From the NCBI GenBank assembly GCA_023129575.1, contig JAGMBS010000001.1:1-58602 (forward strand): 58,602 bases of DNA, given 5' to 3'. The translations under genes and the position numbers were made by a program. This DNA comes from Minisyncoccota bacterium (lineage in GTDB: Bacteria; Patescibacteriota; Minisyncoccia; Phycocordibacterales; UBA12079). The notes beneath the pieces were generated by a model. That model was not told the origin of the DNA, made no database searches, and was given only the letters and a program-made list of their open reading frames with translations. Shown piece after piece: positions 5,844 to 49,890 of this stretch (within the stretch, counting starts at the first letter, position 1; each line of letters opens with the position of its first letter).

Positions 5844-6329
5844 ATGGAAATAAAAAATTTTATTTTAGATATTGATGGGGTTTTTACAACTGGTCAATTT
5901 TTATATACAGCTAATGGGAAATTTGCAAAAGTCTTTGGGGCTCATGACAATGATGGAATAAAACTTATACGGAAATATTTAAACATTCATACAATTACAG
6001 CTGACAAGAGAGGTTTTGAAATCACTAAAAAAAGAATACATAACGATATGAAACTTAAATTTGACATAATCCCCGAGAAAGAAAGACTTTCGTGGCTTAA
6101 AGAAAATTTTGACTTATCAAAATCTGTGTACATGGGAGACGGAATTTATGATGCTGAAATATTTAAACATGTAGCTTATAGTATAGCCCCTAATAGCGCC
6201 TTTTATAAAGCCAAAGAAGAAGCAAACTTTGTAACCAGATCTAATGCGGGAGAGGGAGCTGTAGCAGAAGCATGTCTACATATTATAGATAAATTTTTCG
6301 AATTACCTGATAAAATTAAAAAAAACTAA
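5844..6329 (+). CDS. HAD-IIIA phosphatase, KdsC-like (sugar-phosphate phosphatase)
   Basis: 161 aa. ILDIDGVFTTG (DxDGV nucleophile motif), DNDGIK and YMGDGIYDAEIF motifs, as in the KDO-8-P phosphatase family. Confidence 0.75.
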   Translation: MEIKNFILDIDGVFTTGQFLYTANGKFAKVFGAHDNDGIKLIRKYLNIHTITADKRGFEITKKRIHNDMKLKFDIIPEKERLSWLKENFDLSKSVYMGDGIYDAEIFKHVAYSIAPNSAFYKAKEEANFVTRSNAGEGAVAEACLHIIDKFFELPDKIKKN

Positions 6330-38139: not shown

Positions 38140-38280
38140 CCCGTTAGAGAGAACCCCCCTATGCAAAGAAATTCTCTAAATTTAATTAAAATTAAATAAT
38201 ACCTATTGTTTGAAAATAAATCCCTATTCTCTAACGGGATTCATCTCCCCAGTATATCAAAAACACCCCTATAATAACAT

Positions 38281-38312
38281 AGCGAACGGCTCAACGAGTT
38301 GAGCCGTTCGCT
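38281..38312. terminator. Perfect palindrome AGCGAACGGCTCAAC-ga-GTTGAGCCGTTCGCT downstream of the 38336-39439 gene; core shared with 49774-49803
   Basis: 15-bp perfect stem read directly. The identical 26-nt core GAACGGCTCAACGAGTTGAGCCGTTC occurs again at 49777-49802. Confidence 0.75.
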
Positions 38313-38335
38313 ATGTTTAGGTTGAAAAATAAGGG

Positions 38336-39439
38336 TTATTGCGATTTTTTCAGCAATTTCTCCAAATTATCCAAAGTGTTTTGGATTGAAAATTGTTTTG
38401 ATTTTTGGTAGGCGTTTTGAATAATTTTTTGCCTAAAATTATCGTTTCTGAAAATCTTCAAAACAGCATTTTTAATTTCTTCTTTATTATTCGGCTCAAT
38501 CAAAATCCCTTCTTTATTATTTTCGATCAATTCCGAATTACCGCCTATATTGGTTGTAATAATCGGAACCATAGCATTAGAAGCTTCTAAAAGAAGATGT
38601 GCGAAACCCTCGTATTTCGTATTTAATACAAACATATCCACTTCCCGCATATATTTCAAAACCTCTTTTTTTTCTAATTGCCCCGTTAAAATAACTTTGC
38701 CTTGTAAATTTAATCCGTCAATTGTCTTTTTTAATTCTTCTTTTTGAGGACCGCTTCCCACAATCACCAATTTCGCTTCCGGGATTTCTTTTAGAATATC
38801 CGGCATCGTTTCAATCAAAACTTTAAAACCTTTCCACGGCACCAACCGCCCCACTGACAAAATAATCTTCTCCTCTCTTGGAGGCCTTGTCTCTAACAAA
38901 TTTTGCGGTGTTAATTTTATGCCATTGTAAATTACATTGATTTTTTCCGGCTGAATACTCCAATTGACAATAATTGTTTTGAAATAATGACTGGGGACTA
39001 TCACAACATCCGCCGCTTTGGCAACTTTGGTCTGAATTTTTTTAAAAAGTTGAACAAAAAAAGAATACCCTTTTTGTTTGGCGGAAAAATCATCAAGATT
39101 GTCTTTGACGCCAAATCTTTGAACCCCTTGCTCCCAAGCGTAATCTCCCGCAATCCGAATAAAAAATCTCTTTCTCAAAATTTTATTAGCCAGCATTGTC
39201 GGCAGACCGACACTGACTGGATCTTGCGCGTAAATAATATCCGCTGATTTTCCCCGTTTAAGAACTTTGAAAAAATAGACGATATGCCTGATTATTTTGG
39301 GCAGATGACGGACTTCGCCAAATGACAAAATTTCCACTTCAAAACCGCGTTTCGGTAATTCGTCAAATAACAATTTTGAATAAGTCGCCGGCCCTCCAAT
39401 ATCCGGCGGATATATTCCTGTTGTAATTAAAATTTTCAT
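38336..39439 (-). CDS. GT4-family glycosyltransferase
   Basis: 367 aa. MKILITTGIYPPDIGGPATY, VGRLVPWKGF, YEGFAHLLLEASNAMVPIITTNIGGNSE. Confidence 0.9.
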   Translation of the reverse strand: MKILITTGIYPPDIGGPATYSKLLFDELPKRGFEVEILSFGEVRHLPKIIRHIVYFFKVLKRGKSADIIYAQDPVSVGLPTMLANKILRKRFFIRIAGDYAWEQGVQRFGVKDNLDDFSAKQKGYSFFVQLFKKIQTKVAKAADVVIVPSHYFKTIIVNWSIQPEKINVIYNGIKLTPQNLLETRPPREEKIILSVGRLVPWKGFKVLIETMPDILKEIPEAKLVIVGSGPQKEELKKTIDGLNLQGKVILTGQLEKKEVLKYMREVDMFVLNTKYEGFAHLLLEASNAMVPIITTNIGGNSELIENNKEGILIEPNNKEEIKNAVLKIFRNDNFRQKIIQNAYQKSKQFSIQNTLDNLEKLLKKSQ

Positions 39440-39452
39440 AATAATATTATAT

Positions 39453-39475
39453 TGACGGACGTCCGACGTCCGTCA
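39453..39475. repeat. REP-like palindrome copy 1: TGACGGACG-TCCGA-CGTCCGTCA
   Basis: 9-bp perfect arms. It overlaps the last codons (LTDVGRPSI-stop) of the RayT-like ORF. Confidence 0.9.
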
Positions 39476-39947
39476 GATATCGTTCGTTTTTTATCCATTC
39501 TTCCATCTCTTTTTTATATTCTTCTCCGCTTGTGTGAAATATCTTCAAAAAAAGTTCCCGATTTGATACGTCTGCAAACTCACTATTCCCTTTTCCTATA
39601 ATATCGCGATAATTAGACCAACGATATTCTTCAAGAAATTTTATAGCTCCCTTCGTATCTTTAATTCCTTTTTCTTTCCATTTTGGCTGAAATAAATCAA
39701 GAGGATTGAGATGAATATAAAATGGCAAATATAATAATTGCGCGTCTTTATTTACAAGAACCTTTTTTGATCGCCCTTGAAATAATACCCCGCTTCTATT
39801 ATTTCGCTCATTAAAATATTTTGTGTATCCCCCAAAAATTTTCTTAGAAAAATTACTTATACCTTCTTTTTTTCTTTCCATTACCATAATGTGGGGATGA
39901 TTCGGCATCAAAGCCCAACAAATAACATCAACAATTTTATCTTGTCC

Positions 39948-39970
39948 TGACGGACGTCCGACGTCCGTCA
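39948..39970. repeat. REP-like palindrome copy 2 (identical to copy 1), inside the RayT-like ORF
   Basis: Identical 23-mer, translated in frame as LTDVGRPS between the N-terminal strand and the HUH motif. Confidence 0.9.
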
Positions 39971-40172
39971 GAGAATATTTATCTGCTCTTCTGCGAAAAT
40001 AAGATTGTTCCGCGTTATGTATGCTGTTAAAATCGCCTAAATTGTGAACAAAACGAATACGGTCTTTGTTATCAAGACAAATTTTTCTTTTTTCCACACC
40101 CCTATTAAAAATATGATACAAATCTCCTTTCACCAATTTAATGATACCATATTTGAATATAATGCACCTGCT

Positions 40173-40195
40173 TGACGGACGTCGGACGTCCGTCA
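40173..40195. repeat. REP-like palindrome copy 3 (loop inverted: TCGGA)
   Basis: Same arms with the central pentamer reverse-complemented, so this is the opposite orientation. It lies in the 5' extension of, or upstream from, the RayT-like gene. Confidence 0.9.
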
Positions 40196-40404
40196 AGTGT
40201 GCTCTTGGCAAAAAGCAAAATCCCGCCCAATAAAATTGCTTTTTTGGTATTTAGGCAGTAGTATTAAGATACTTGTGAATAGCAATAATGAACTTTTTAT
40301 AAGAAAACAATTCGCATAAAAACGAGTTAAATCCAATAGCGATTGTAATTAATAATCCCGCCCATTTTGCGAAAGTTTTTAAACAGCAACAGATTAATAA
40401 AAAT

Positions 40405-40749
40405 ATGAAAGTTACAAATTCCAAAATCAGTTTATTTGTTCAATTTATTTTAATTGTTCTCGTCTGGAGTTCTCCTTTTTGGCTAAGTTGGAAACTGATT
40501 TTGGCAGGGATTTTTATTTATTATCTTCAATTAATTGTTTTTAAGGAAGATTTTTTCACAAAACGAAATTTTAATACTAAAGAGCGTGGAGAAATGACTT
40601 TTTATTCTTTTGTTTTGGAAAAAATTGGAATAGGTGTTGATAGAAAGAGAATGCAATTAATTTCAGATTATATTTTTCCTTGGGTAATTTTTGCTGTTAC
40701 TTATTATTGGCAAATTTTTCTTGGGAATTTAGTTTGGTTAAGTTTCTAA
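40405..40749 (+). CDS. Hypothetical small membrane protein
   Basis: 114 aa with 3-4 hydrophobic segments. The only plus-strand ORF in this stretch. No family recognised. Confidence 0.4.
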   Translation: MKVTNSKISLFVQFILIVLVWSSPFWLSWKLILAGIFIYYLQLIVFKEDFFTKRNFNTKERGEMTFYSFVLEKIGIGVDRKRMQLISDYIFPWVIFAVTYYWQIFLGNLVWLSF

Positions 40750-40973: not shown

Positions 40974-42152
40974 TTATTTAATCATTTTCTCAAAAATATT
41001 CTGCATCTTTTTTGCGATTAAATTCCAATCGTATTTTTGGGCAATTAATTGGGAGGCGTTTTGGGTGAGGGTGTTTGCGAGATTTGGATTGTTTAGGAGT
41101 AATTGGATTTTTTCGGCGATTGATTTTGGATTTTGAACTTCGCAAAAAAGTCCCGTCTCGCCGTCTTTCAAAAAATCAGGGATACCGCCAACCGGCGTTC
41201 CGATTACCGGCGTTCCCGCCGCCATCGCTTCCAAAAAAACATTTCCCAAACCTTCCGAGAGTGAAGGTCTAACAAATACATCCGCCAGAGCATAATAACT
41301 TGGCAATTCGCTGTGGTCAATATGTCCAAGAAAAATTATTTTGTTTTGGAGATTTAATTCTTTCGCCAAATTTTTCAATTTTTCTTCATCCTCCCCCGCG
41401 CCGGCGATTAAAATTTTAAATGGGAAATTCAGATATTGCCCCGCTTTAATCAAATCCTCAATACCATTCTTTTTAACCAATCGTGAAACCGTCAAAATCA
41501 CCTTTTCATTTTCTTTAATCTTTAATTCTTCTCTTAATTTTTGACTTTTGACTTTTGACTTTTGACTTTTGAACTTGTTTATATCTACTCCATTAGGAAT
41601 CACTTCAATCGGACAAGTCGCTCCCATCTTTTTCGCCCAGTCCGCCAAATAAGAACTAATGCATTGAATTCGGTCGGCTCGCCTGAAGATGTTTCTGAAT
41701 TGTTTTTTTATAAAACGAGTTCTTTTTTCAATATGTTCCGGGCTGTCACCTTCTTGAAGCGTGAGCAGAAAGCGGGGGGCGGCCTTTGCCGAAGGCAAAG
41801 GCCGCTTTCTTTCCTTTGAAATAAATCTGGACGCCGCCAAAGCGCCATAACTCGCCATTATCGCCCAAGCGATATCATAATTGTTTTGCCTCTGCAATTT
41901 TCCGGCCATCCGATGGCCGTGGAATGCTAAAAGCAATTTATCTATTTTTGGATGTCCAATCCCAATTCTAAAAACCGTGATATTTCCAATTTTTTCCTGT
42001 TTAGGTAATTTCTTATCCATCCGAGCCGTTATCATATGAAATTCCATATCAGATATTCGGTCCGTAATTTCCTTAACCGCCACTTCCGCCCCGCCGACAA
42101 ACGGGAAATAAGCCGTTGAAAATATAAGAATTTTTTTAGATATTTGGGTCAT
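40974..42152 (-). CDS. GT4-family glycosyltransferase containing a (AAAAGTC)4 tandem repeat and a GC-rich palindrome
   Basis: The ORF is open to 42173. ATG at 42152 (MTQISKKILIFSTAYFPFVGGAEVAV) is the likely start. VSRLVKKNGIEDL, PSLSEGLGNVFLEAMAAGTPVIGTPVGGIPD. Confidence 0.85.
   Translation of the reverse strand: MTQISKKILIFSTAYFPFVGGAEVAVKEITDRISDMEFHMITARMDKKLPKQEKIGNITVFRIGIGHPKIDKLLLAFHGHRMAGKLQRQNNYDIAWAIMASYGALAASRFISKERKRPLPSAKAAPRFLLTLQEGDSPEHIEKRTRFIKKQFRNIFRRADRIQCISSYLADWAKKMGATCPIEVIPNGVDINKFKSQKSKVKSQKLREELKIKENEKVILTVSRLVKKNGIEDLIKAGQYLNFPFKILIAGAGEDEEKLKNLAKELNLQNKIIFLGHIDHSELPSYYALADVFVRPSLSEGLGNVFLEAMAAGTPVIGTPVGGIPDFLKDGETGLFCEVQNPKSIAEKIQLLLNNPNLANTLTQNASQLIAQKYDWNLIAKKMQNIFEKMIK
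41543..41570. repeat. Tandem heptanucleotide repeat (GACTTTT)x4 on the plus strand, (AAAAGTC)x4 in the coding sense
   Basis: Four perfect 7-nt units followed by a degenerate fifth (GAACTTG). It encodes KFKSQKSKVKSQK within the GT4 gene. Confidence 0.9.
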
Positions 42153-43689
42153 TTTTATCCAATTTAACGACAAAAACCATACCGGCTATGGCTATTATGG
42201 TAATACCCAGCAAAGAAAAAGCCCATTTATTAAAAGGAGATTTTTTAGCAGTTTGTTTAGCGATTGGATTTGACGATGTCGGACCCGCTAATGTTAAATT
42301 CGGCGTCAAAGCCGCGCCGGCAATTGCTGCCATTTGATTTGAATTTTCCGCTACAATCGGCTGTTTTTGAACCGCATTCGCATCAAATTGAGGCGGATTT
42401 TGGGTGAATGCGGTTTTTACAACAAAATTGGCGGTTTTCTTAGGAATATCCGGACTAATTTTTTTTGTTTCCGCATATTCAAAAGCCAACCTCCCGTTTG
42501 GGTAAAGTAATTGAATTTGACTATTTTCTCGCGGAAAAAGATTGCTTATTCTGGCTGAAAATTTAATCCGGCTTTTCGGCAAAAGAATGGTATTTTTCGG
42601 AATTGTCCAATAATTATTGTCCGCTCTTAAGCGCCACCAAGACAGATTAAGTTCATAAGCAGAAGGATTATGAAGTTCAATAAAATTATTGTCAAAATTG
42701 GTTCCCAGTTCCGAAATAATGATGTCGGACGGAATAACTTTTATTTTCAAACGGGTGGCAGAGGAGCATTCGCCTGAAATAACTTCCAAAACCGCCATAT
42801 AATCACTTGGATATTGGTAATTGTGCAGAACTTTTTGCCCCGCGGCTTTTGAGCCGTCGCCAAATGTCCATTGGTATTTTGCGTTTTGCAAAGGTCTGTT
42901 TTGAATACCAAAGGCCTGGGCTTCAAAAAGAAAATCCGCGCCCGCGATTGGCGTGTCAGTCGGCGGAATAATCCGGGCGGAAATTCGCGGTTCAATATAT
43001 TCCGGAACGGGTGGAGTTGGATTATCATTTTCAGTTTGCGGAGTTTCGGGAAGGCTTGGCGGGTCAATTTCTTCTAAAAATTTTTCAATGACAACAATAC
43101 CATCAATCGGCAAATTGCAAGTGGTTGCTTCACCGGGGGTTGGAGCGCAAGCGCCCCAGCTTCCGTCACTTATTTTTTGAAATGAATTGCCAATATCTTT
43201 ATTCTCCGCAAAAGGAAAATATGACGCCTGAATAACATTTTTTGAGTCAGAGTCTTTAATAATGAGAGTCTCTCCACTCTCTTTGTTGATTAGAGAACCA
43301 AATTTAGAATTAAGAATTGTACCAGAAAAATTAGGCCAATCTGTTAAAAATGTACTCTCATCTCCATCTTTAATATCCGCCACAATTAAATACTCTTTAG
43401 GTTCCAACGCAAAACTACCCTGAATTACTGAAAAAGGGTGTCCACCGTCCTTATCAACTAATTTCCACCCTGTCAGATTTTCAACTTTCTCCAAATCCGA
43501 ATTATAAATCTCAATCCATTCCCTGCCCCCATCAGCTTTTGAGCCAAGGGCATCTTCGCCTGGGTCATACATTATCTCGGTAATTTCAATTTGGGCAAAA
43601 AGAAAAAGCGGCGCGCAAAAAAGAAAGAAAAGGGCGATTGCCGCAGGCAATCGCCCTTTGTATTTATTTATTTTCCGGTCTTTTAACAT
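42136..43689 (-). CDS. Secreted/membrane-anchored lamin-tail-domain protein (LTD-PKD-LTD, C-terminal TM)
   Basis: 517 aa. Signal-like N-terminus, LTD motifs ITEIMYDP...REWIEIYN and NFIELHNPS...WWRL, PKD-like YQWTFGDGS, C-terminal hydrophobic WAFSLLGITIIAIAGMVFVV. Confidence 0.8.
   Translation of the reverse strand: MLKDRKINKYKGRLPAAIALFFLFCAPLFLFAQIEITEIMYDPGEDALGSKADGGREWIEIYNSDLEKVENLTGWKLVDKDGGHPFSVIQGSFALEPKEYLIVADIKDGDESTFLTDWPNFSGTILNSKFGSLINKESGETLIIKDSDSKNVIQASYFPFAENKDIGNSFQKISDGSWGACAPTPGEATTCNLPIDGIVVIEKFLEEIDPPSLPETPQTENDNPTPPVPEYIEPRISARIIPPTDTPIAGADFLFEAQAFGIQNRPLQNAKYQWTFGDGSKAAGQKVLHNYQYPSDYMAVLEVISGECSSATRLKIKVIPSDIIISELGTNFDNNFIELHNPSAYELNLSWWRLRADNNYWTIPKNTILLPKSRIKFSARISNLFPRENSQIQLLYPNGRLAFEYAETKKISPDIPKKTANFVVKTAFTQNPPQFDANAVQKQPIVAENSNQMAAIAGAALTPNLTLAGPTSSNPIAKQTAKKSPFNKWAFSLLGITIIAIAGMVFVVKLDKNDPNI
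43629..43659 (-). terminator. Perfect 14-bp hairpin plus U-rich tail immediately after the upstream stop codon, inside the LTD ORF
   Basis: AAAGGGCGATTGCC-gca-GGCAATCGCCCTTT. On the minus strand it is followed by TTCTTTCTTTTTT. It starts 5 nt after the stop (43664) of the ATPase gene. Confidence 0.6.
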
Positions 43690-47688: not shown

Positions 47689-47761
47689 AGCCACCTGTCA
47701 GATTCGAACTGACGACCTACGCGTTACGAGTGCGTTGCTCTTCCAACTGAGCTAAGGTGGC
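47689..47761 (-). tRNA. tRNA-Thr (anticodon CGU)
   Basis: Manual cloverleaf: GCCACCT/AGGTGGC acceptor, GCTC/GAGC D stem, anticodon loop CTCGTAA, GTCAG-TTCGAAT-CTGAC T arm. 73 nt, no encoded CCA. Confidence 0.85.
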
Positions 47762-47766
47762 AAATG

Positions 47767-47839
47767 AGCCCAGAAGCAGAATTGAACTGCTGACCTCTCG
47801 CTTACCATGCGAGTGCTCTACCAGCTGAGCTATCTGGGC
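47767..47839 (-). tRNA. tRNA-Thr (anticodon GGU)
   Basis: Manual cloverleaf: GCCCAGA/TCTGGGC acceptor, CTCGC/GCGAG anticodon stem, loop ATGGTAA, AGCAG-TTCAATT-CTGCT T arm. 73 nt. Confidence 0.85.
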
Positions 47840-47909
47840 ATTATAATTTATTTCTTCACAAATATTCTCAAATACAATAAACCGCTAATTATTTATATGC
47901 ACCAAAATT

Positions 47910-48773
47910 TTATTGTGAATTTTTGTATGCCGTTTGAAGTAGTTCTGTTAGAAAAACTTGGTTATTCTGGACATCTTTTTCATCTAATCTAAATCTATAA
48001 ATACCCCATTTTTTAAAATATTCTGCATCTTTTATACCACTTTCATCGATTTTCTTTTGAATTTCATCCGAATAAGGCAGTTTAATTTCTAAATTTAACA
48101 ATTTCCTTTTAGGTCGAAAAGTAGCAAAATTGTTGGGTCGTTTATTTTTTGTCAAACCAATATAAAACTTATTATAGTTAAACTCATATCCCTCAGTAAA
48201 ACTTTGTATAAATTCTAAAATTTTATCAGCAGTTTTAACAGTAATTTCAGAACCGTTTTTTATCCAATAATTCCTGTCAGTTATTTCTTTTACTTCATCT
48301 TCTTCATCCGTTCCTAAAACCAATTCATCCAAAACTGTTATAAAATTAAGTCCTATATTTTCACCTATTTGAGAAGCCTGCATCTTAATCGCTATTAAAG
48401 GAATATGTCCATTAAACAAATTTATAATATTAAAAAAACGAGCAGTAATGTCTTCAGCGACAATAACCGCACAATGATCATACTGAGGATATCTTTTTCT
48501 TTCTCTGTCCCAATACTCAATTGTTCTTATAATATGACTTTCATCCACTTTTCCCAATTGTATTTCCACTTCATACCGTCGTTGAGTTTCTGGGTCTTGC
48601 AGTAATAAATCAAGACGACCGGCTTGAGGTTGTATTCTTTCAGTATCCTTTAACACCAAGTCCCCCAATCCTAAAATTGATGGATTTTCCGCTATTTCTT
48701 TTTGAATTATTTGTTCATTTATTTCAGGATTATCAGAAAGACTTATTTTGTTTGGATAAATTATTTTTGACAT
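47910..48773 (-). CDS. Hypothetical protein with PD-(D/E)xK nuclease-like N-terminal half
   Basis: 287 aa. GRLDLLLQD...YEVEIQLGKVDESHIIRTIEYW resembles the D...E-x-K/Q core of the NucS/DUF91/DUF4268-type nuclease fold. It lies between tRNA genes. Confidence 0.4.
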   Translation of the reverse strand: MSKIIYPNKISLSDNPEINEQIIQKEIAENPSILGLGDLVLKDTERIQPQAGRLDLLLQDPETQRRYEVEIQLGKVDESHIIRTIEYWDRERKRYPQYDHCAVIVAEDITARFFNIINLFNGHIPLIAIKMQASQIGENIGLNFITVLDELVLGTDEEDEVKEITDRNYWIKNGSEITVKTADKILEFIQSFTEGYEFNYNKFYIGLTKNKRPNNFATFRPKRKLLNLEIKLPYSDEIQKKIDESGIKDAEYFKKWGIYRFRLDEKDVQNNQVFLTELLQTAYKNSQ

Positions 48774-48824
48774 ATTTTATTTTTTACAAACTATAATAAT
48801 TCTGCTTCTAAATCTTTTGTTTTG

Positions 48825-48897
48825 CGCGAGCGACCGGACTTGAACCGGCGACCTCCGCTGTGACAGAGCGGCGCTCTACCAGCTGAGCTACACCCGC
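48825..48897 (-). tRNA. tRNA-Asp (anticodon GUC)
   Basis: Manual cloverleaf: GCGGGTG/CGCTCGC acceptor (two G-U pairs), CCGCT/AGCGG anticodon stem, loop CTGTCAC, GCCGG-TTCAAGT-CCGGT T arm, discriminator G. Confidence 0.85.
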
Positions 48898-48900
48898 AAA

Positions 48901-49599
48901 TTACTTTGGTTTACAATTTTGTTTTTTCAAAAAATTTTCAAAACAGTTTCTCTTTCTCTGTAAAAATAAACTTGTTTCAAGATTATCATACATTAAGTGA
49001 TATAACAATAATGAGTCATTAACACTAAAACTTAAGTCATAAGCCCCACAATTCTTTTTTTTGCACAAACTCCCGCCTTTCAGACCCTTATTCCTTAATA
49101 ATCTAAACATTTCTTTTAAAAATGCAACCGAGGACGAGGTAAATACAGAACGAATCACAAAAGTTTGAGTTTTTCTATGTTTATGAATATACCCTGACCA
49201 TACATTTCCATCTCCGTCAAAATACCCCCTCACGAAATCACCAAAATATTTTTTAGGGACATTAGGAAAATCCATAGTATAAGTTTTTCTTTCTTCCATT
49301 CCTAATTTTCTTAAATCATTACACATCTCTTTGCTTCCAATCTGCAATCTGTATATATCAGATGTGTTTCCTTCCCCTTTTCTTAACGCAATCTTGTGTT
49401 CCGAATCCAAAACTTCTCTCATATTTTCAAGTATTATTTTGTCGCAAATTTGAATACTTATAAAATGCGCGCCTCGTGGATTTACAGTAATAGATCCATC
49501 AGCCATAAAAAATCCTAAAACATAGGACATCTCTGGAGACCATTTTTTAAAAAAGCTTTTATCAACTCGTTTGTATATTGGCATACTGCCATTATACAT
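48901..49599 (-). CDS. Double-motif LAGLIDADG homing-endonuclease-like protein
   Basis: 232 aa. Two LAGLIDADG motifs, YVLGFFMADGSI and FVRGYFDGDGNV. The stop codon lies 3 nt from the 5' end of tRNA-Asp. Confidence 0.8.
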   Translation of the reverse strand: MYNGSMPIYKRVDKSFFKKWSPEMSYVLGFFMADGSITVNPRGAHFISIQICDKIILENMREVLDSEHKIALRKGEGNTSDIYRLQIGSKEMCNDLRKLGMEERKTYTMDFPNVPKKYFGDFVRGYFDGDGNVWSGYIHKHRKTQTFVIRSVFTSSSVAFLKEMFRLLRNKGLKGGSLCKKKNCGAYDLSFSVNDSLLLYHLMYDNLETSLFLQRKRNCFENFLKKQNCKPK

Positions 49600-49643
49600 T
49601 ATGACAGGACATTATACTAACCATTATTGTTGACAAAAAATTG

Positions 49644-49717
49644 TGTCGATGGGAGGATTCGAACCTCCGATCTGGCGCGTATGAGACGCCCGCTTTAACC
49701 AACTAAGCTACATCGAC
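49644..49717 (-). tRNA. tRNA with CAU anticodon (elongator Met, or Ile2 if lysidine-modified)
   Basis: Manual cloverleaf: GTCGATG/CATCGAC acceptor with G1-C72, loop CTCATAC, GGAGG-TTCGAAT-CCTCC T arm. 74 nt. Confidence 0.8.
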
Positions 49718-49773
49718 ATTAAGTATAATATAGCATAATTGCAACGATTTTTGAATAAAAAACACAAACAAAA

Positions 49774-49803
49774 ATGAACGGCTCAACGAGTTGAGCCGTT
49801 CAT
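49774..49803. terminator. Perfect palindrome ATGAACGGCTCAAC-ga-GTTGAGCCGTTCAT flanked by A- and T-runs (bidirectional terminator shape)
   Basis: Same 26-nt core as 38281-38312. AAAA on the left and TTTTTT on the right. It lies between two tRNA genes. Confidence 0.7.
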
Positions 49804-49819
49804 TTTTTTGCATTTCTTG

Positions 49820-49890
49820 TTGCGGGAGTTTGATTTGAACAAACGCCTGGAGATTATGAGCCTCCCGTGCTACCGCTACACTATCCCGCG
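49820..49890 (-). tRNA. tRNA-fMet candidate (anticodon CAU, C1:A72 mismatch)
   Basis: Manual fold: CGCGGGA/TCCCGCA acceptor with an unpaired C1-A72 (bacterial initiator hallmark), GTGT/GCAC D stem, loop CTCATAA, GTTTG-TTCAAAT-CAAAC T arm. It is short (71 nt) and the anticodon stem lacks the full GGG/CCC. Confidence 0.65.

Follow-up and report, generated by a model that had tools for sequence, protein, structure and literature searches.

RAYT-like genes and their cognate palindromes form a probable family of REPtron-like units in Patescibacteria

Introduction

A stretch of 58,602 nt from a Minisyncoccota bacterium (GenBank assembly GCA_023129575.1, contig JAGMBS010000001.1; the whole stretch is hereafter called the window) carries on its minus strand a gene with the motifs of Y1 HUH transposases, referred to here as tnpA, together with three copies of a short palindrome, one of which lies in the middle of the gene itself. 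How does a palindrome come to lie in frame inside a transposase gene, and is it there by accident? A first-pass annotation of the window described the locus as a REPtron-like unit, in which the gene of a RAYT (REP-associated tyrosine transposase, also named TnpAREP) is bracketed by its own repetitive extragenic palindrome (REP), and it took the internal copy for an 8-codon insertion private to this gene. We compared the locus with its homologues and we propose, with a probability of roughly 0.65, that it belongs to a large family of REPtron-like units spread across the Patescibacteria, in which a vertically inherited RAYT/TnpAREP-like gene is combined with a cognate palindrome. In these units, the palindrome is found at three recurrent sites: immediately upstream of the putative -10 box and the start codon of the gene, in frame within a variable surface loop (the αA-β2 loop) upstream of the HUH motif, and at or just after the stop codon.

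Results

Copies of the palindrome in the window

A pattern search of the whole 58.6 kb identified three copies of the GC-rich palindrome TGACGGACGT-C(G/C)G-ACGTCCGTCA, at positions 39453-39475, 39948-39970 and 40173-40195. Searching for TGACGGACGNNNNNCGTCCGTCA with up to three mismatches yielded exactly three matches in the window and none in 100 dinucleotide shuffles. The form TGACGGACG-NNNNN-CGTCCGTCA also occurred exactly three times, including when three mismatches were allowed, and no degenerate copies were detected in the window with the shorter core CGGACGTNNNACGTCCG, for which three mismatches led only to the same three sites. These results confirm the earlier count of three copies with none elsewhere in the window.

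All three copies are located in or beside the maximal minus-strand open reading frame (ORF) 39447..40211, which encodes 254 aa from a TTG codon, and in this frame they read LTDV(R/G)RPS. When the flanks are included, the palindromes measure 23, 25 and 27 nt, with stems of 10, 11 and 12 bp that enclose a 3-nt loop, and their folding energies as single-stranded DNA (ssDNA) range from -12 to -14 kcal/mol (z = -4.2 to -5.3). The 5' copy (40171..40197, minus strand, core 40173-40195; CTTGACGGACGTCCGACGTCCGTCAAG on the gene strand), identified by pattern and by folding, presents the 12-bp stem. The internal copy (39947..39971, minus strand; CTGACGGACGTCGGACGTCCGTCAG) has an 11-bp stem and encodes LTDVGRPS in frame. 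The 3' copy (39453..39475, minus strand) is fused in frame to the last codons of the gene (…Y-LTDVGRPS-I-stop). In a DNA alignment of four related loci, the hairpins form invariant islands, and the 5' copy is a conserved island in upstream DNA that is otherwise unalignable.

The loop of the 5' copy had been described as inverted. It does differ from the two others, but the element is a perfect odd palindrome whose central base is G or C, so that the inversion amounts to a single central base. Moreover, all four loop patterns are observed across the 5', internal and 3' copies of the family, and loop orientation was rejected as a defining feature. No Rfam family was found at the tnpA locus, the sole matches in the window being five tRNAs at 47.7-49.9 kb, and a built-in scan for sigma-70 promoters and terminators returned nothing meaningful near the 5' or 3' copy.

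Conservation of the internal copy across the family

We fetched 79 homologous loci (labelled L001 and so on) from GTDB genomes and scanned, as DNA, 85 homologous genes of other Patescibacteria. Hairpins were considered strong when the best-hairpin score was at least 16, and the interval of residues 66-98, which includes the internal copy, was compared to five control intervals of equal size in the coding sequence (CDS). A strong hairpin was present at residues 66-98 in 54 of the 85 genes and in only 3-9 of the 85 genes in the control intervals. With a score of at least 20, these numbers became 43 and 0-4 genes, respectively. Among the 54 genes with an internal hairpin, the same arm (at most one mismatch) was found just 5' of the gene core in 46, at or after the stop codon in 43 and at all three sites in 36. 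Seven further genes possess matched 5' and 3' copies with no internal copy, and 12 genes present no GC-rich perfect-stem hairpin in either flank.

The protein alignment gives the same picture. Homologues with 50-70% identity present (L/M)(T/S)D(V/I/M)x(R/C)P(S/T) where the window has LTDVGRPS, and homologues with identities as low as 33% carry their own cognate palindrome in the same loop. The peptide copies within one protein match each other, and in some over-extended gene calls it reappears at the N-terminal end or within the C-terminal tail. The first-pass annotation had reasoned that equivalent residues in homologues, if they came without the palindrome, would speak against an insertion. 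Homologues do carry such residues, yet the palindrome is present with them. The internal copy is therefore not private to this gene, since more than half of the homologues (the 54 genes above) carry a hairpin in the same αA-β2 loop.

In the predicted structure, LTDVGRPS corresponds to residues 81-88 (numbering of the 254-aa frame) of a loop spanning residues 77-93, between a helix (71-76) and a strand (94-101). The predicted local distance difference test score (pLDDT) is below 50 at residues 76-78 and 80-84, as it is at residues 1-24, which include the peptide of the 5' hairpin, and at residues 251-254. The internal copy, which is in frame, is thus placed in a low-confidence loop of the model. 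The position of the hairpin is not fixed across the family: its centre is found in two of the three codon phases (35 with xDVxRPx and 18 with GRxTS), and its distance varies from 0 to 57 nt from R75 and from 17 to 71 nt to D95. These variable distances indicate that the family shares the same αA-β2 loop rather than the same codon. Within the subfamily of the window (the window, L112, L113 and L001), the upstream position of the internal hairpin is identical.

Stem covariation and matching of copies within loci

The stems differ between loci (TGACGGACGT, ACGGAGGT, GTGGACGT, GTCGGGAGT, GTCGGCTAT, TGTAGACGT, ATGGATGT and others) and are uniform within each locus. In the 43 internal hairpins whose loop measures 3 nt, Watson-Crick pairs occupy 97% of the cells of the inner eight pairs, a figure that drops to 17-18% after shifting of the partner. 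A core, GGAnGT-nnn-ACnTCC, is common to the family, and lineage-specific outer stem pairs are added to it. Pair 5 is G-C in 43 of 43 hairpins, and all four Watson-Crick types occur at pair 3 and at each of pairs 6-10. The outer pairs 8-10 vary freely, yet they are paired in 79-98% of the hairpins, and some stems extend to 15-22 bp. Because the hairpins were chosen by their pairing score, the inner six or seven pairs are biased toward pairing; pairs 8-10 and the match between the copies of one locus are free of this bias.

The match between copies is most apparent at syntenic loci. Every copy presents GGACGT/ACGTCC in the window and in L001, and GGAGGT/ACCTCC in L003. Between the window and L001, the stems are identical in all copies, and the third codon positions elsewhere in the gene are 45-53% identical. 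More generally, the hairpin codons keep 7/8 and 6/8 of their third positions between syntenic loci, against 0.45-0.58 elsewhere in the gene. In the internal copy of L003, GAC is replaced by GAG and CGT by CCT, and the same C:G to G:C swap is found in all three copies. Six coordinated changes of this kind are not explained by independent mutation; they require that one site be copied to another, through gene conversion or through replacement of the element. In imperfect hairpins, a preference for G·T on the sense strand would indicate a structure at the RNA level, but the counts were small and noisy (internal copies, 1 vs 4; 5' copies, 8 vs 8; 3' copies, 12 vs 5).

We also observed that many solo and gene-linked copies possess extra outer pairs that are specific to their locus, with stems reaching 20-22 bp even inside the CDS (e.g., L101 3068-3086, L105 355-373, L107 2970-2988, L109 578-596, L062 10211-10253 and L004 9952-9998). 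This suggests insertion into pre-existing hairpins or a templated extension of the palindrome.

The enzyme

The probable CDS of tnpA (39447..40133, minus strand) starts with GTG, encodes 228 aa and ends with a TAA stop at 39447-39449. The maximal frame contains the motifs YHIFNRG, NHPH and YIHLNP. The two histidines of the HUH motif N-H-P-H (39891..39902, minus strand), H105 and H107, are invariant in 31 aligned sequences. The same alignment shows Y165, N169 and P163 of the catalytic-tyrosine motif YIHLNP (39702..39719, minus strand) to be invariant as well, and P170 is present in at least 90% of the sequences. The motif Y---NP is the signature of class 2 (TnpAREP), whereas IS200 has Y---Q (Quentin et al. 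2018, PMC6006769).

Matches to the Pfam family Y1_Tnp with E ≤ 0.01 were obtained for 12 of the 31 family members. Searches of the PDB by sequence, using the single protein or a profile of the 31 sequences, yielded no match. We built an AlphaFold (AF2) model from 31 homologues (predicted template modelling score, pTM, 0.77), and its best Foldseek match (E 3.6e-4, probability 1.0) is 4er8_A, a structure of the REP-associated tyrosine transposase from E. coli in complex with a REP hairpin. The TnpA proteins of IS608 and ISDra2 come next, among hits 2-30. The link to RAYT was thus obtained only by the comparison of folds. The C-terminal part of the protein, which is ~225 aa long in the family, forms an extra helical domain; taken in isolation, this domain has no credible Pfam match, and no helix-turn-helix (HTH) or DNA-binding domain is recognizable in the C-terminal half. 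In total, 7390 homologues were found, mostly of ~225 aa. Those with a named source are labelled mostly Patescibacteria or Parcubacteria, and the same is true of nearly all 79 genome loci.

Although profile matches are marginal, the fold match of the model and the conserved HUH and tyrosine residues indicate that the gene encodes a RAYT-like Y1 HUH enzyme. The transposase hallmarks recognized in the first-pass annotation are thus corroborated by the 4ER8 fold match and these residues, along with weak Y1_Tnp and REP_Tyr_transpos hits, and its description of a REPtron-like gene bracketed by its own palindrome stands (copies at 40171-97 and 39453-75). The concern that the ORF might be a pseudogene is not supported: it is intact, keeps all 39 family-invariant residues and is predicted with a confident RAYT-like fold.

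Translated copies, start codon and promoter

Homologues begin with MKG(D/N)(L/I)(Y/F)H at window position 40133, and L112, a relative with 89% identity, presents an ATG at the site of the GTG of the window. The likely CDS is therefore 39447..40133, which leaves the 5' copy outside, its end lying 37 nt upstream of the probable start codon. Based on these alignments, the 5' copy is most likely not translated. The frame is open through the 5' hairpin in ~19 of 46 loci (tallied by hand), about as often as chance would predict. Translation of the 3' copy is restricted to the window and L112, where it results from a deletion of ~45 nt that removed the ancestral tail (…GYKxDFSxFE) and its stop codon; the stop precedes the 3' hairpin in L113, L001 and most homologues. 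By this comparison, only the internal copy is ancestrally translated. The reading of every copy in frame as LTDV(G/R)RPS is thus correct for the ORF that was listed for the window, but the 5' copy lies upstream of the likely start and the 3' copy is read only as a result of the deletion. Gene callers often over-extend the ORFs of this family through the 5' palindrome. The public calls P0008, P0017, P0018, P0066, P0067 and P0070 start inside or upstream of it (e.g., MTDVARPS, MSDIACPT), and their ORFs have probably been extended too far, given that the palindrome often starts with an NTG in frame.

A putative extended -10 box, TGgTATCAT (40141..40149, minus strand), identified as a consensus match, ends 7 nt before the GTG at 40133. 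We first recognized the extended -10 geometry by eye and then used a script to count it in 42 relatives that possess a 5' hairpin. In 32 of them, the end of a -10-like hexamer lies 4-12 nt ahead of the start codon. Within these 32 loci, 24 match at least five of the six -10 positions (hand count; ~13% expected by chance from a hand estimate), 12 present an upstream TGn, and in 20 the first base of the hexamer lies between -3 and +7 nt from the end of the hairpin. This layout suggests that the transcripts are leaderless and that the hairpin belongs to the -35/spacer zone. The match to the -10 consensus implies that the transcript of the window may likewise be leaderless or near-leaderless.

A perfect TATAAT (39446-39451) is located 1 nt after the 3' palindrome, where it overlaps the tnpA stop and ends 6 nt before the ATG (39439) of the downstream gene. 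The 3' side of the unit in the window presents the same succession of hairpin, -10 box, short gap and start codon as the 5' side of many members. In addition, the outer arm of the palindrome, (T/C)TGACG, resembles a -35 box.

Synteny and inheritance of the unit

The unit is flanked by two GT4 glycosyltransferase genes, which are outside the element and serve as synteny anchors. In L001/L083 and L003, tnpA is followed by an orthologue of the downstream gene (38336..39439, minus strand) and directly preceded by an orthologue of the upstream gene (40974..42173, minus strand). The order GT4-tnpA-GT4 is common to the window, L001/L083 and L003, which represent three species, and the same neighbours are found in L113. 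At the syntenic loci, the identity is 48-51% for the GT4 orthologues and 59% for tnpA, which shows that tnpA has diverged no faster than its neighbours. Similarly, the Kaiserbacteria loci L036, L037, L038, L039 and L043 share 14-32 collinear flanking ORFs with ~55% identity. Paralogues of the same genome are 30-50% identical and each has its own hairpin (L019), and identical multi-copy units were not seen among the examined loci. Low copy number, vertical inheritance and housekeeping-like divergence constitute the pattern of RAYTs (Bertels et al. 2017). In its synteny and divergence, the unit shows the pattern of a domesticated RAYT rather than that of an active insertion sequence (IS).

Several features of the neighbourhood differ between relatives. 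Upstream of the tnpA unit, the window possesses an extra segment of ~760 nt that reaches to the GT4 gene and contains a hydrophobic ORF of 114 aa (40405-40749, plus strand). L001 and L003 do not have this segment, and their upstream GT4 gene stops directly at the 5' palindrome. In L112, a 66-nt fragment (99-165) just upstream of the 5' palindrome is identical to the first 22 codons of a GT4 gene, and it is almost a repeat of the beginning of the GT4 gene located after the 3' palindrome (926-947). This fragment, which the window does not have, may be the trace of a duplication or rearrangement spanning the unit.

Dispersal of solo copies

The exact palindrome, with any loop, was found in only 32 contigs among 241 million metagenome records, and 28 of these contigs are tnpA-free. 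Eight of the 32 contigs come from a single groundwater sample, which is also the source of the tnpA-bearing locus L083. Solo copies are mostly intergenic, and many present additional locus-specific outer stem pairs. In the flanks of the relatives, we detected nine extra copies in 677 kb, or ~1 per 75 kb outside the units. The palindrome is a dispersed, very low-copy REP-like family that is strongly concentrated at its gene. It had been asked whether the palindrome is confined to this locus; this is not the case in related populations, where solo copies lie on tnpA-free contigs.

The contig of L015 is mirror-symmetric and contains two mirrored gene copies whose pivot (6066-6119) is an inverted doublet of the cognate hairpin. 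It is probably a fold-back assembly artefact seeded by the palindrome, and its REPIN-like doublets were excluded as evidence of dispersal.

Other palindromes and tRNA genes in the window

The window also contains two long GC-rich palindromes (38276-38317 and 49770-49807) with stems of 19 and 17 bp, respectively, and a common core, GAACGGCTCAACGAGTTGAGCCGTTC. One follows the stop codon of the downstream GT4 gene at a distance of ~20 nt (38276-38317), and the other is located between the tRNA genes 49644-49717 and 49820-49890. They may represent a second repeated hairpin family or shared terminators. Five tRNA genes are clustered on the minus strand at 47689-49890.

Discussion

The recurrence of the internal hairpin, the match between the copies of each locus and the synteny of the gene lead us to favor a Patescibacteria-wide family of vertically inherited RAYT-like genes with cognate palindromes. 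The TnpAREP enzymes of E. coli, Stenotrophomonas and Marinomonas cleave and rejoin REPs in ssDNA in vitro. By analogy, the enzyme of this family would bind, and probably cleave and rejoin, hairpins extruded in single-stranded DNA. This activity, or short-tract gene conversion, could keep the three copies homogenized to the current REP variant. The internal copy would persist if the αA-β2 loop is the one place that tolerates the 7-9 encoded residues, and the promoter-proximal copy may give the enzyme a handle on its own transcription, allowing autoregulation.

Several observations weigh against this interpretation. Profile scores for the protein of the window are below the curated thresholds: 19.4 bits for Pfam PF01797 (Y1_Tnp; gathering threshold 23) and 27.5 bits for the NCBIfam equivalog NF047646 (REP_Tyr_transpos; cut-off 80). 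In canonical REPs, a GT[AG]G foot guides cleavage. The palindromes of this family have no such foot, and their flanks are symmetric extensions (T…A, C…G, A…T). This symmetry, which often continues beyond the core, implies that recognition of double-stranded DNA (dsDNA) by a dimer fits the covariation equally well. The varying register and the two frames of the internal hairpin indicate that its history includes re-insertions or indels, and selection for the internal copy cannot be told apart from continual homogenization. The promoter is proposed from consensus matches, and the 5' copy of the window lies 24 nt from the putative -10 box, not adjacent to it. Finally, the dispersed population is tiny, with no copy outside the gene in 58.6 kb, such that REP mobilization may not be the selected function.

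Part of these observations would be expected if the palindromes were regulatory sites of the host gene, an explanation that we consider rather unlikely. A dimeric protein or another factor would bind them as dsDNA operators or as RNA/DNA hairpins, with the 5' copy as the main operator and the internal and 3' copies as auxiliary sites (cf. lac O1/O2/O3 looping) or as RNA roadblocks or stabilizers; co-evolution of half-sites would then explain the "compensatory" changes. Consistent with this, most 5' copies abut a -10-like box followed by the ATG 6-7 nt later, the perfect palindromes have no asymmetric foot, the core GGAnGT/ACnTCC is conserved in sequence family-wide as expected for a protein recognition site, and very few copies exist elsewhere in the genomes. 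In contrast, the free variation of pairs 8-10, still 79-98% paired, and the stems of 15-22 bp reached in some loci fit selection or mutation that acts on pairing itself and not on contacts with the half-sites. Solo copies far from any tnpA and a C-terminal half with no recognizable DNA-binding domain also argue against regulatory sites. This explanation and the one that we favor are mutually compatible.

It is improbable that the unit is an active IS of the IS200/IS605 type, whose 5' and 3' palindromes would be the left-end and right-end (LE/RE) hairpins used for "peel and paste" transposition, the internal copy being an accident or an alternative end. The succession of hairpin, Y1 gene and hairpin fits such an element, as do the IS608 and ISDra2 TnpA proteins among fold hits 2-30, and the partial duplication of the downstream gene start across the unit of L112 hints at rearrangement. 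However, the tyrosine motif is the Y---NP of class 2 and not the Y---Q of IS200, the unit occupies the same chromosomal site in three species with a divergence no faster than that of its neighbours, and no identical multi-copy units were seen, the paralogues being 30-50% identical and each having its own hairpin. Moreover, no tnpB gene is present, the hairpins are perfect and symmetric rather than imperfect with guide sequences, and solo palindromes are dispersed without the gene.

Still less credible is the original idea that a dispersed REP inserted recently and by chance as a private in-frame insertion of eight codons, without history or role. The internal copy is indeed in frame and in a low-confidence loop, and in-frame insertions of REPs have been described in genes unrelated to them (PMC3733652), but the cognate hairpin is found in the same loop of 54 of the 85 homologues, at the same upstream codon position in the window, L112, L113 and L001, and it has been kept in syntenic orthologues whose neighbours are only ~50% identical. 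A chance repeat or a decaying pseudogene of no consequence, for which only the Pfam and NCBIfam scores below curated thresholds would speak, is practically dismissed by the shuffles without a single copy, the intact ORF with its 39 family-invariant residues and the confident RAYT-like fold.

As a member of a RAYT-like family, the unit is best compared with the REPtrons (E. coli YafM/4ER8, Stenotrophomonas REPtron Sm, Marinomonas REPtrons Ma and Mb). Both present the Y1 HUH fold, the Y---NP motif, low copy number, vertical inheritance, a distinct palindrome for each paralogue and a gene bracketed by it. REPSm is also an 8-bp perfect palindrome with a 3-nt loop, and the REPs of Marinomonas are likewise concentrated beside tnpAREP (PMC8266576). 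REPtrons differ by their GT[AG]G foot, where the family of the window is fully symmetric with a tiny dispersed population (~1 per 75 kb). This family further differs by its longer proteins (~225 aa) with a helical C-terminal domain, by the proline as middle residue of NHPH, by the third copy within the CDS in about two thirds of the genes and by its Patescibacteria hosts.

The most striking feature, a REP inside the gene of its own transposase, had been presented as unusual. It is less unprecedented than it seemed, since cognate REPs lie in frame inside tnpAREP in subclass 2.4 (group 4 of Bertels) and were called unique to that subclass (Quentin, Siguier, Chandler, Fichant 2018, PMC6006769). 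In both cases, the in-frame cognate REP occupies a peripheral variable region and is predominant across the group. The motifs are different, with NH[IFV]H, WQ and YIxNNP in subclass 2.4 and NHPH, FQ and YIHLNP in the window. The insertion sites also differ, the copy of the window lying before the HUH motif in the αA-β2 loop (residues 81-88). In addition, the REPs of subclass 2.4 are long or "double-foot" with GT[AG]G, whereas those of the window family are symmetric perfect palindromes without a foot, and the hosts are Cyanobacteria and Bacteroidetes rather than Patescibacteria.

Compared by motifs only, the closest published set is that of subclass 2.1, or TIRYT (NH[YF]H, FQ, Y[IV]HLNP; Quentin 2018; Di Nocera 2013, PMC3733652), whose proteins have a similar length (median 238 aa) and an extra C-terminal domain. 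FQ, YIHLNP and the length agree with the window, where the middle residue of the HUH motif is P. Subclass 2.1 reportedly contains no REP-like sequences and is flanked by terminal inverted repeats, not by hairpins as in the window, and its C-terminal domain is HTH- or DnaA_C-like, whereas no such domain is detectable in the protein of the window. Patescibacteria are unmentioned in the classification papers that we searched for the name, and literature searches combining RAYT or IS200 with Patescibacteria or the candidate phyla radiation (CPR) found no relevant paper.

The IS200/IS605 elements IS608 and ISDra2 share the Y1 HUH core and a CDS bordered by hairpins, which in their case are recognized as ssDNA. 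These elements also have a Y---Q motif, exist as multiple mobile copies that are identical, carry imperfect hairpins equipped with guide tetranucleotides and often include tnpB; none of this is seen here. Rickettsia palindromic elements are another parallel, reportedly described by Ogata et al. in 2000 as in-frame insertions in protein genes. In these elements and in other intragenic REPs, a short palindromic repeat is translated as a surface peptide and the protein remains intact (PMC3733652). They differ in that they are scattered in unrelated genes, with CGTC-type repeats that have no dedicated transposase. In the family of the window, by contrast, the gene that hosts the palindrome presumably encodes the cognate enzyme, and the insertion site is a recurrent one throughout a deep family. 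Overall, this locus is a variant of an established type of system: its most striking feature has a published precedent, and the family presents a richer picture than the first-pass annotation had drawn.

This family bears on the benefit that RAYTs and REPs bring to the cell and on the way in which each enzyme remains matched to its palindrome. The RAYT systems studied so far involve hundreds of REPs per genome. Here, the same partnership is found in genomes of ~1 Mb with a handful of copies, three of which occupy fixed niches linked to the gene. A REP within its own gene is now known outside subclass 2.4, at a second and unrelated position of the fold. Because the covariation is clean and coordinated within each locus, specificity switching and homogenization could be tested with a few synthetic genes or oligonucleotides.

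More speculatively, the three palindromes may constitute a functional self-addressed system, a view that we hold to be doubtful. In such a system, the enzyme would bind and possibly nick and rejoin the palindromes, autoregulate or reversibly rearrange its gene, and copy-correct the sites. If true, this would explain how every copy of a locus comes to show a compensatory change of the stem simultaneously and why a perfect palindrome of 23-27 nt has been kept in a CDS across a phylum-level radiation of minimal genomes. The family would then offer a minimal and tractable model of RAYT-REP co-evolution, with a "population" of 3 to ~20 elements, and a protein whose coding sequence holds its own recognition site under selection.

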